Shown here piece by piece: positions 5,046-5,320 of a DNA stretch of 5,320 nt. A program made the position numbers and the translations under genes. Numbering within the stretch: position 1 is the stretch's first letter; each line of letters starts with the position of its first letter. Under the pieces are notes generated by a model. That model saw only the letters and a program-made list of their open reading frames with translations. It did not search any database and was not told the DNA's origin. The stretch comes from a virus (taxonomy: Duplodnaviria > Heunggongvirae > Uroviricota > Caudoviricetes): positions 1 through 5,320 of IMG/VR virus record IMGVR_UViG_2690316345_000006; one strand, given 5' to 3'.

Positions 5046-5212
5046 TTTTTTTGTTTGCTGTTTATTAAAAACACTTCTGCATGGTGAATCCCCCTGTGCG
5101 GAGGGGCGATCAGCAACCAGGTATATGGGATAATCGCGGATTCAGGTGCTGATACTGAATTCACCGGGAGGCACCCGGCACCATGCAAGAAAAAGAATGT
5201 GCATGCAAACAT

Positions 5213-5236
5213 GCCCCTCTCCGGAGGGGCTTTTTT
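5213..5236 (+). terminator. Rho-independent terminator
   Basis: GCCCCTC-TCCG-GAGGGGC, perfect 7-bp stem, followed by TTTTTT. Confidence 0.65.
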
Positions 5237-5320
5237 ATGGGTAAAAAATGCCCGAATGGGTTCGGGCAATAGCATGAGATACTGATATTGTTGTGTTGTT
5301 ATCGTGTGGATTTTAACCAG

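Follow-up and report, generated by a model that had tools for sequence, protein, structure and literature searches.

Positions 5046 to 5320 of the DNA analysed here, a 5,320-nucleotide (nt) stretch of a Caudoviricetes virus record (IMG/VR IMGVR_UViG_2690316345_000006, positions 1 to 5,320; hereafter the window), most probably contain two independent, convergent small RNA (sRNA) genes that together form the 'sRNA dyad' of a lambdoid prophage of the Sakai Sp10 type. We put the probability of this reading at about 0.88. An Rfam scan of the window returned two strong, full-length matches in this hairpin-rich region, one on each strand. On the plus strand, positions 5050-5242 match STnc100 (RF02076, 'Gammaproteobacterial sRNA STnc100') over model positions 1-206 of 206, with 145.8 bits against a gathering score of 47 (E 2.2e-33). 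On the minus strand, positions 5304-5243 match RF02702 with 96.5 bits against a gathering score of 56, and this gene is AgvB1 (EcOnc01a). The two genes run terminator to terminator, plus-strand STnc100 ending at 5236 and minus-strand AgvB at 5243. Window positions 4700-5320 are identical to prophage Sp10 of Escherichia coli O157:H7 Sakai at 621 of 621 positions, and the 275-nt query found loci of 100% identity on the chromosomes of many Shiga-toxin-producing E. coli (STEC). Related sequence occurs in 2856 of 5426 complete E. coli genomes, in up to 12 places per genome.

The genomic setting of the pair is that of a known class of loci. In the identical locus the gene order is DUF1367, DUF1364, DUF1133 (Q-like), tRNA-Ile, tRNA-Arg, TerB, DUF3927, the dyad, a SASA-family esterase, holin, YdfR and lysozyme, with the moron genes (TerB, DUF3927) on one side of the dyad and the esterase and lysis genes on the other. 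This position is the moron slot of the lambdoid late operon, where Stx phages carry stx. A convergent sRNA pair between a moron coding sequence (CDS) downstream of Q/PR' and a conserved esterase open reading frame (ORF) is the arrangement described for prophage convergent sRNA dyads (Tree et al. 2014). Table S2 of that study lists EcOnc06 in prophage Sp17, with 5/5 Hfq passes in cross-linking and analysis of cDNA (CRAC), a northern band of ~177 nt, and the homologue "5' ECs1961". The esterase gene that directly follows the window locus is ECs_1961, so the homologue named in that entry is the locus in the window. The Sp17 copy differs from window positions 5046-5242 by five substitutions and one inserted A, the Sp10/Sp17 differences lying at 5057, 5072, 5076, 5108 and 5128. 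Given these published descriptions of EcOnc06 and AgvB1, together with the identity to Sakai Sp10, the locus is already known: it is the published STnc100/EcOnc06 and AgvB1 pair, correctly rediscovered.

An earlier note on this DNA, made by a model from the letters alone, had described the 275 nt as a structured non-coding tail with two related CCCC...GGGG hairpins, a third hairpin between them and a terminator. The region is indeed structured and non-coding, but it holds two genes rather than one tail, its final 62 nt (5243-5304, minus strand) being AgvB. The hairpins can be read from the sequence where the note had placed them: CCCCT (5091-5095), loop GTGCGG and AGGGG (5102-5106); CCGGG (5164-5168), AGGCA and CCCGG (5174-5178); and a terminator of GCCCCTC (5213-5219), TCCG and GAGGGGC (5224-5230) followed by T6 (5231-5236), with which our terminator scan concurs. 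The arm shared by the first and last of these, CGGAGGGGC, occurs at 5099-5107 and 5222-5230, two matches against 0.04 expected (0/200 shuffles reach 2), and the folding energy of 5050-5242 as RNA is -76.4 kcal/mol, where shuffles average -57.9 ± 4.5 (z -4.15) and none of 200 does as well. The hairpin pattern is real and not a product of chance. The note had further proposed a small RNA of about 100-200 nt, to be checked by an Rfam scan, by covariation and by a search for a transcript, and each of these bore it out: the STnc100 match lies far above threshold, sequence and structure are kept in homologous loci with abundant covariation, and the literature holds a near-identical, northern-verified and Hfq-crosslinked paralogue of ~177 nt, EcOnc06 of Sakai Sp17, whose table entry names this very locus. 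Overlooked in the note were a fourth hairpin (5138-5145 / 5155-5162), a 9-bp closing helix, a pseudoknot and the minus-strand gene.

Five helices with strong covariation and a loop-to-strand pseudoknot make up the fold of the STnc100 core. This conserved structured core (5078-5187, plus strand) is closed by P1, a perfect 9-bp inverted repeat of TGCATGGTG (5078-5086) and CACCATGCA (5179-5187) that is 92% paired among 66 copies, carries compensatory changes at 8 of its 8 modelled pairs and is also supported by an alignment-free test. P2 (5091-5106), the CCCCT / GTGCGG / AGGGG hairpin, is almost invariant in sequence across genera; its CG pairs are retained in 62-64 of the 66 copies, with rare compensatory changes, and its innermost U-A pair is unconserved (33/65). 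P3, in which CGAT (5107-5110) pairs with ATCG (5133-5136), encloses an insert that varies from 0 to more than 40 nt among copies, and all four of its pairs show compensatory changes, one of them being GC in 33 copies, AU in 16, UA in 7 and CG in 3. A small hairpin within the insert (CCA 5117-5119 / TGG 5126-5128) comes from the minimum-energy fold only. The hairpin missed earlier is P4, eight pairs between GGATTCAG (5138-5145) and CTGAATTC (5155-5162) around the 9-nt loop GTGCTGATA; in the 66-copy alignment 96.5% of its cells are paired and 8 of 8 pairs have compensatory changes, and its loops are mostly 8-10 nt long. One P4 pair is G-U in 36 copies, which is compatible only with the plus strand as RNA. 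P5 (CCGGG / AGGCA / CCCGG, 5164-5178) lies within the block TCACCGGGAGGCACCCGGCACC, is 99% paired and shows two to three compensatory events; in 45 copies chosen by a different motif, this block varies little or not at all.

Over the whole core, 93.2% of alignment cells are standard pairs, compared with ~44% after sliding the 3' partners by 1-3 columns (66 copies, 44 loci), and 26 of 30 pairs change on both sides, values that 0 of 500 shuffles reach; the alignments were fitted to the window-derived structure, which favours that structure, and the slid controls and two alignment-free tests serve as guards. MAFFT and RNAalifold alone recovered only P1, P2 and P5, and P3, P4 and the pseudoknot required the structure-guided alignment. 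Covariation is heavy in P1, P3 and P4, with P2 and P5 nearly invariant. Because the covariation is strand-specific, G-U pairs included, we conclude that selection acts on the RNA fold.

The pseudoknot joins ATCAGC (5109-5114), directly 3' of the P3 5' strand and with a 2-nt overlap with it, to GCTGAT (5148-5153), six of the nine bases of the P4 loop. Its existence is very probable. In the alignment to model R2, in which the pseudoknot helix replaces P3 and P4, its five pairs are 95.5% paired and all five change on both sides. In an alignment-free comparison, each strand pairs better with its own partner than with the partners of other sequences (0/5000 permutations), and a second one, of 122 unique copies, gave a mean contiguous run of 6.28, compared with 4.66 ± 0.10 for permuted partners; at least five pairs form in 103 of the 122, using 79 distinct helix sequences. 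The layout of the P4 loop, two unpaired, six paired and one unpaired base, resembles that of known kissing loops. The pseudoknot is absent from the Rfam structure line of STnc100, and the sole published STnc100 consensus that we found was made with RNAalifold, a tool unable to predict pseudoknots. Three other features of the region were considered and set aside. In the minimum-energy fold, UGUUUGC (5052-5058) of the 5' leader is paired with GCAAACA (5204-5210) of the linker that follows the core, a helix that was rejected, as sister copies carry uncompensated changes at 5053 or 5057; GGA motifs of the CsrA type in the P2 loop were dropped, the A varying (A, T or C) among copies; and a possible likeness of GTGAATCCCC to the core of the ERIC (enterobacterial repetitive intergenic consensus) repeat was not used.

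Copies of this element were found well beyond Escherichia. A search of species-representative Enterobacterales genomes with the motif of the first hairpin yielded 44 stretches in about 20 genera, including Pantoea, Erwinia, Klebsiella, Enterobacter, Citrobacter and Leclercia. The second block, TCACCGGGAGGCACCCGGCACC, which was not part of the search pattern, follows the motif by 60-110 nt, unchanged in most stretches and with 1-3 substitutions in a few. These loci include 25 STnc100 matches above the Rfam threshold, in 18 loci of other genera, so that the homologues found with the window motif are members of the family. The window was combined with two of its close relatives to build a covariance model of five nested helices (R1), which detected 66 copies in these genome loci and a further 113 in 80 phage contigs (179 in total). 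R1 had no match in the 570-580 kb region of K-12 that holds prophage DLP12; the idea that IpeX of DLP12 belongs to the same family was dropped after this null result, and ipeX is not annotated in that record.

Several arrangements of the copies merit mention (loci are numbered with L). Genomes of Superficieibacter, Erwinia and Leclercia and a number of phage contigs contain head-to-tail arrays of 2-6 units at ~220-260 nt spacing (L010, L012, L020, L024, L030, L036, L039, L056, L064, L082, L097, L106 and L118), and many of the units each seem to possess a -10 box and a terminator. A related ORF of 62-63 amino acids with the pattern M[KR]EG[FY]YW[IV].HN...VQ[VI]AY[YF]...G[IV]WH[LM]T[QR]G... recurs 77-128 nt after four terminator-less copies (L016 6762-6874, L074 2234-2345, L106 4889-4999 and L107 12250-12368). 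Other sRNA families neighbour copies in other genera (L021 4609-4706 and L013 6743-6860): a Leclercia copy has an isrI match (49.9 bits) directly before it, and a Pantoea copy has fnrS at a distance of 2.6 kb.

Around the core, the parts that would make this element a gene can be read with varying confidence. A candidate sigma-70 promoter region lies at 5034-5071 on the plus strand, and a consensus promoter scan found no strong promoter there. One candidate -10 element, CATAAT (5034-5039), would place the start near 5046 and give an RNA of ~190 nt; the other, a -35 TTGATT (5042-5047) and a -10 TAAAAA (5066-5071) separated by an 18-nt spacer, would place it near 5078 and give ~159 nt. Among 138 unique upstream regions, -10-like hexamers cluster 8-13 nt before P1, and because they pile up just there, the RNA probably starts at the closing helix in most genera; the Sp5 copy clearly starts further upstream. 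In the sister copies of Escherichia and its phages, TGTTAAAA is retained just upstream of P1.

Downstream of the core comes a single-stranded, A-rich linker with A-R-N repeats, AGAAAAAGAATGTGCATGCAAACAT (5188-5212, plus strand), the sequence reading AAGAAAAAGAAU... from 5187. We consider it a candidate Hfq distal-face site and seed region. Linkers are hypervariable even between copies with near-identical cores and consist of 64% A+U, and at least three consecutive ARN repeats occur in 13 of 75, compared with 4.8 ± 1.9 in shuffles. For EcOnc06 the peak of Hfq crosslinking falls at about 5145-5214, where the shift between genome-version coordinates is an estimate, and the northern probe for EcOnc27, another family member, targets the equivalent linker. 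The idea that the plus-strand RNA plays a second anti-GcvB role was rejected, because the duplex of linker UGCAAACA with GcvB UGUUUGCA (-15.4 kcal/mol) is matched by 13% of shuffles, compared with 1.3% for the AgvB control.

The STnc100 gene ends at the intrinsic terminator 5213-5236. A terminator is found within 130 nt of P1 in 99 of 155 unique copies, mostly 15-45 nt after it. The earlier observation that the first and last hairpins are related holds for the window, where 5211-5230 and 5088-5107 are 85% identical (17/20) and a local alignment of 5070-5112 to 5188-5240, which takes in the TGCATG before them, outscores all of 5000 shuffles; it is not general in the family. The P2-like terminator is the commonest of many types, but it is one module, common in Escherichia phages, and at least 40 other types are unrelated to P2. 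In the window, the terminator and its TGCATG look like a degenerate copy of the P1 5' strand plus P2, for which a partial duplication would be the likeliest origin, plausibly from a tandem array. Upstream region, core, linker with terminator, and convergent partner are reshuffled between phages.

The minus-strand gene needs less argument. All 62 of its 62 positions equal the RF02702 consensus, and its RNA folds at -13.7 kcal/mol (z -3.75). From the 5' end at 5304 it comprises the GcvB-target mimic CACAACA (5295-5289), a stem-loop (5283-5271), the terminator stem (5268-5249) and the U-tail (5248-5243), all on the minus strand. The CACAACA at RNA positions 10-16 is the target consensus of the GcvB R1 seed, and the first 21 nt pair with K-12 GcvB at -19.4 kcal/mol, which 1.3% of shuffles equal. 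The likely -10 box of the agvB promoter (TAAAAT, 5310-5315, minus strand) can be read in the window, and the putative -35 (TTGCGC, 18-nt spacer) falls just beyond its end, as seen in the identical locus (L001 9260-9300). AgvB is a characterised sRNA: EcOnc01a and EcOnc01b are AgvB1 in Sp10 and AgvB2 in Sp17, and the RNA, of the same exact sequence as here, pairs with the GcvB R1 seed through the CACAACA mimic, lifts the repression of dppA by GcvB and favours growth in bovine rectal mucus (PMC4104026).

Two further observations concern the two genes. In the identical locus, a terminator-like plus-strand hairpin, GGCTGCGC / AACT / GCGTGGCC followed by T7, stands 37-65 nt beyond the window end (L001 9283-9311), between agvB and the esterase gene; it overlaps the agvB promoter region and is of the type that serves as STnc100 terminator in other phage copies. 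A minus-strand ORF of 193 amino acids (window 4694-5275) takes in all of the STnc100 gene along with DUF3927, the 3' half of TerB and a part of AgvB. Within this span the Sakai record has a shorter CDS, hypothetical protein ECs_1960, and PGAP makes no such call in strain E2863; ECs_1960 is probably a spurious CDS overlying both sRNA genes.

How may the dyad work? For AgvB1 the answer is published: it sequesters the GcvB R1 seed by its CACAACA mimic, so that repression of DppA and other transporters is relieved. The plus-strand RNA is most likely an Hfq-dependent base-pairing sRNA that joins a fixed scaffold to a variable seed. According to this reading, the STnc100 gene would be transcribed from its own weak sigma-70 promoter, the conserved core would be a stable scaffold or a protein-binding module, and the hypervariable A/U-rich linker before the terminator would supply both the contacts to the Hfq distal face and the target specificity. 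That the RNA acts in trans in this particular way, through its variable tail and Hfq with the core as scaffold or binding module, seems to us an even bet. As a secondary effect in cis, the back-to-back terminators may keep moron transcription in the lysogen from running on into the esterase and lysis genes, and Q-modified late transcription would read through the terminators.

A number of points weigh against the base-pairing reading. The trans role is proposed by analogy, because no target or phenotype is known for EcOnc06 or any other STnc100 member. The near-invariance of P2, P5 and the junctions, together with the pseudoknot, exceeds the needs of a simple scaffold for an Hfq sRNA, about a third of the family members have no detectable terminator, and the ARN enrichment of the linkers is modest. 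The promoter candidates predict ~159 or ~190 nt, compared with the ~177 nt seen for the paralogue. Lastly, the sole functional hints concern another copy, sRNA103, whose overexpression raises fimZ and espA.

Four other explanations have to be weighed against the dyad of a base-pairing sRNA and AgvB1. One may speculate that the core is functional in its own right, as a folded RNA that binds a specific protein or ligand and acts as a decoy, sponge or aptamer, with Hfq and seed pairing secondary. STnc100 would then stand apart from ordinary Hfq sRNAs, as a structured RNA of wide distribution with an invariant, pseudoknot-locked P1-P5 junction for a binding module. Mobile elements would carry this module repeatedly, also in tandem arrays, and each copy would have a variable tail of its own. 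The blocks GGTGAATCCCCCTG.GCGG.GGGGC and TCACCGGGAGGCACCCGGCACC remain unchanged, even in their loops, from Escherichia through to Pantoea and Erwinia; several helices meet in the junction of the core, which also has a covarying pseudoknot; and the family is a very abundant one yet has no assigned function. The up to 12 places that it occupies in an E. coli genome, and its tandem arrays of 3-6 copies, are as expected for titration. No partner is known, however, Rfam in E-value mode brought up no resemblance to protein-binding families, riboswitches or ribozymes, Hfq crosslinking peaks in the 3' half and linker, and nuclease protection could by itself explain the invariant hairpins. We regard this explanation as a tentative one, with perhaps one chance in a few of being right. 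Far less probable is that the region is a mere terminator pair or recombination boundary between phage modules, and its RNAs functionless by-products. The back-to-back terminators do stand exactly at the moron boundary, and modules are reshuffled between phages as at a recombination hotspot, but boundary sequences would not account for strand-specific covariation with G-U pairs, which bespeaks selection on an RNA fold, for the demonstrated function and fitness effect of AgvB (PMC4104026), or for the Hfq binding of the paralogue EcOnc06.

The two remaining explanations, a cis-acting leader and a small protein, fare no better. In the former, which we consider improbable, the core would act as an attenuator that sets the choice between a stop at 5213-5236 and read-on into the esterase and lysis genes, the P2 3' arm (GAGGGGC, 5101-5107) pairing alternatively with the terminator 5' arm (GCCCCTC, 5213-5219). 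The arms common to both hairpins make this 7-bp cross-pairing possible and the conservation of the core is riboswitch-like, but most copies have terminators unrelated to P2, so the cross-pairing is no feature of the family. No terminator is detectable in 55 of 150 unique downstream contexts, some of which have an ORF 20-100 nt downstream, yet the ORFs after these 55 are heterogeneous, only one small ORF recurring (4 loci). Among the copies surveyed we found neither a conserved class of downstream gene nor a family-wide alternative pairing with the core. The convergent sRNA gene, the further plus-strand terminator (L001 9283-9311), the 170 nt between terminator and esterase start, and the accumulation of the paralogue as a discrete ~177-nt RNA speak against read-on as well. 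The suggestion of the earlier note that the region might be a regulatory leader upstream of the lysis genes is not supported: the RNA ends at a terminator that belongs to it, the holin is separated from it by a convergent sRNA gene and by an esterase gene of 1.85 kb, and the genes downstream are not conserved across the STnc100 family. As for a small protein, a frame from ATG 5184 and a 32-codon frame from GTG 5146 are open in the window, ribosome footprints have been reported on some STnc100 copies of EDL933 with footprint/transcript ratios of up to 3.2 (PMC5331693), and the frame through P5 has at least 30 codons in 92 of 152 copies, compared with 40 and 58 for the other two frames. The former frame is the one that had been noticed earlier; it runs through the terminator as then described, but its length from ATG to TAG is 29 codons and not 28. 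The ATG belongs to the P1 3' strand and is retained in 38 of 150 readable copies, with ACA, GCA, ACG and others in the remaining 112, and GTG 5146 sits in the covarying pseudoknot strand. The P5 frame varies in start position, start codon and C-terminal length, has no start in 38 of 152 copies, and is preceded by a Shine-Dalgarno-like sequence at 6 of 114 starts; any frame that came in from upstream would be disrupted by the P4 loop, whose length is 8, 9 or 10 nt. With no start, Shine-Dalgarno sequence or frame conserved in the family copies, a coding function is very improbable, and the earlier judgement that the region has no convincing ORF stands.

Some neighbouring features of the window may be recorded here. 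The prophage carries a hok/sok type I toxin-antitoxin module, with a full-length match to the sok antitoxin RNA at 1669-1839 on the plus strand (RF01794, 105.9 bits against 59) and, directly downstream, an ORF (1837-1992, plus strand) for a 51-residue Hok-like membrane peptide (MKQQKAMLIALIVICLTVIV...). Right after the Q-like gene, at about 3885-3990 on the plus strand, a TTGACG box is followed ~80 nt on by a terminator-like hairpin (CCCGC 3967-3971 / CATTGA / GCGGG 3978-3982, with T6); the two occupy the PR'/tR' position, where Stx phages make the short StxS RNA. The hairpin at 3967-3982 is not listed by the terminator scan, and a weak Trp_leader match at 3921-3991 (E 0.53) probably reflects the same hairpin. 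Phage tRNA genes lie at 4028-4103 and 4204-4280 on the plus strand, with a terminator after them at 4293-4312. The gene with anticodon CAT is tRNA-Met according to ARAGORN and tRNA-Ile according to RefSeq, that is, an ileZ-like lysidine tRNA, and the second gene is tRNA-Arg(UCU). The latter is overlapped by an STnc100 match that falls short of the threshold (4219-4323, 20 bits) and looks fortuitous.

The call of a non-coding RNA locus from sequence alone was thus correct, yet the element had already been published, and one of its two genes is a characterised anti-sRNA that aids growth of E. coli O157 in bovine rectal mucus. The main addition of our analysis is the refined fold of the STnc100 core, backed by covariation, with its pseudoknot, invariant hairpins and hypervariable tail, which gives experimenters defined mutants to make. 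The pseudoknot is also worth reporting to the Rfam curators of the family.

Compared with known systems, the plus-strand gene stands closest to EcOnc06, with which it shares near-identical sequence, the same AgvB partner and the same position upstream of the esterase gene. EcOnc06 is nevertheless a separate prophage copy, and its northern band and CRAC peak are assigned to Sp17, an assignment to be read with the limit that reads and probes cannot fully separate the copies. With the STnc100 family at large the window element has in common the closing helix, P2, P4, P5, the terminator, the prophage setting and the many copies per genome, and nothing sets it apart. The differences lie between the Rfam model and the fold found here: the model has no pseudoknot and has different small helices in the variable insert, and its first ~28 positions (5050-5077) may be promoter rather than RNA. 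In EDL933, 11 STnc100 copies are transcribed and STnc100_4 is northern-positive (PMC5331693). STnc100 has also been detected in outer-membrane vesicles of STEC, and a published listing counts it with the most abundant sRNA families and assigns it no function.

EcOnc27/sRNA103, found downstream of stx2B in Sp5/933W, belongs to the same family and shares the slot between moron and esterase, the convergent layout (with AsxR as partner) and Hfq binding, but its identity is ~74%, its insert, linker and terminator are others, and its RNA begins close to where stx2B ends and is the longer one (235/247 nt). Of its two bands the 247-nt form is destabilised without Hfq, and its overexpression raises fimZ and espA. 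PasD1 and PasD2 of enteropathogenic E. coli E2348/69 are likewise Hfq-dependent prophage sRNAs upstream of a sialate esterase gene, with partners known from RIL-seq, and Zhu et al. 2026 describe them as structural relatives of STnc100. They are too diverged to be linked by BLAST and their proposed seeds differ. On the minus strand, AsxR (RF02703) has a conserved 3' part of ~42 nt and the convergent position in common with the gene in the window, which scores 43 bits against its threshold of 63 and whose 5' variable region is a mimic of GcvB targets and not the FnrS-directed one of AsxR. With AgvB (RF02702; EcOnc01a/b), by contrast, there is no difference to describe: the minus-strand gene is AgvB1 itself.

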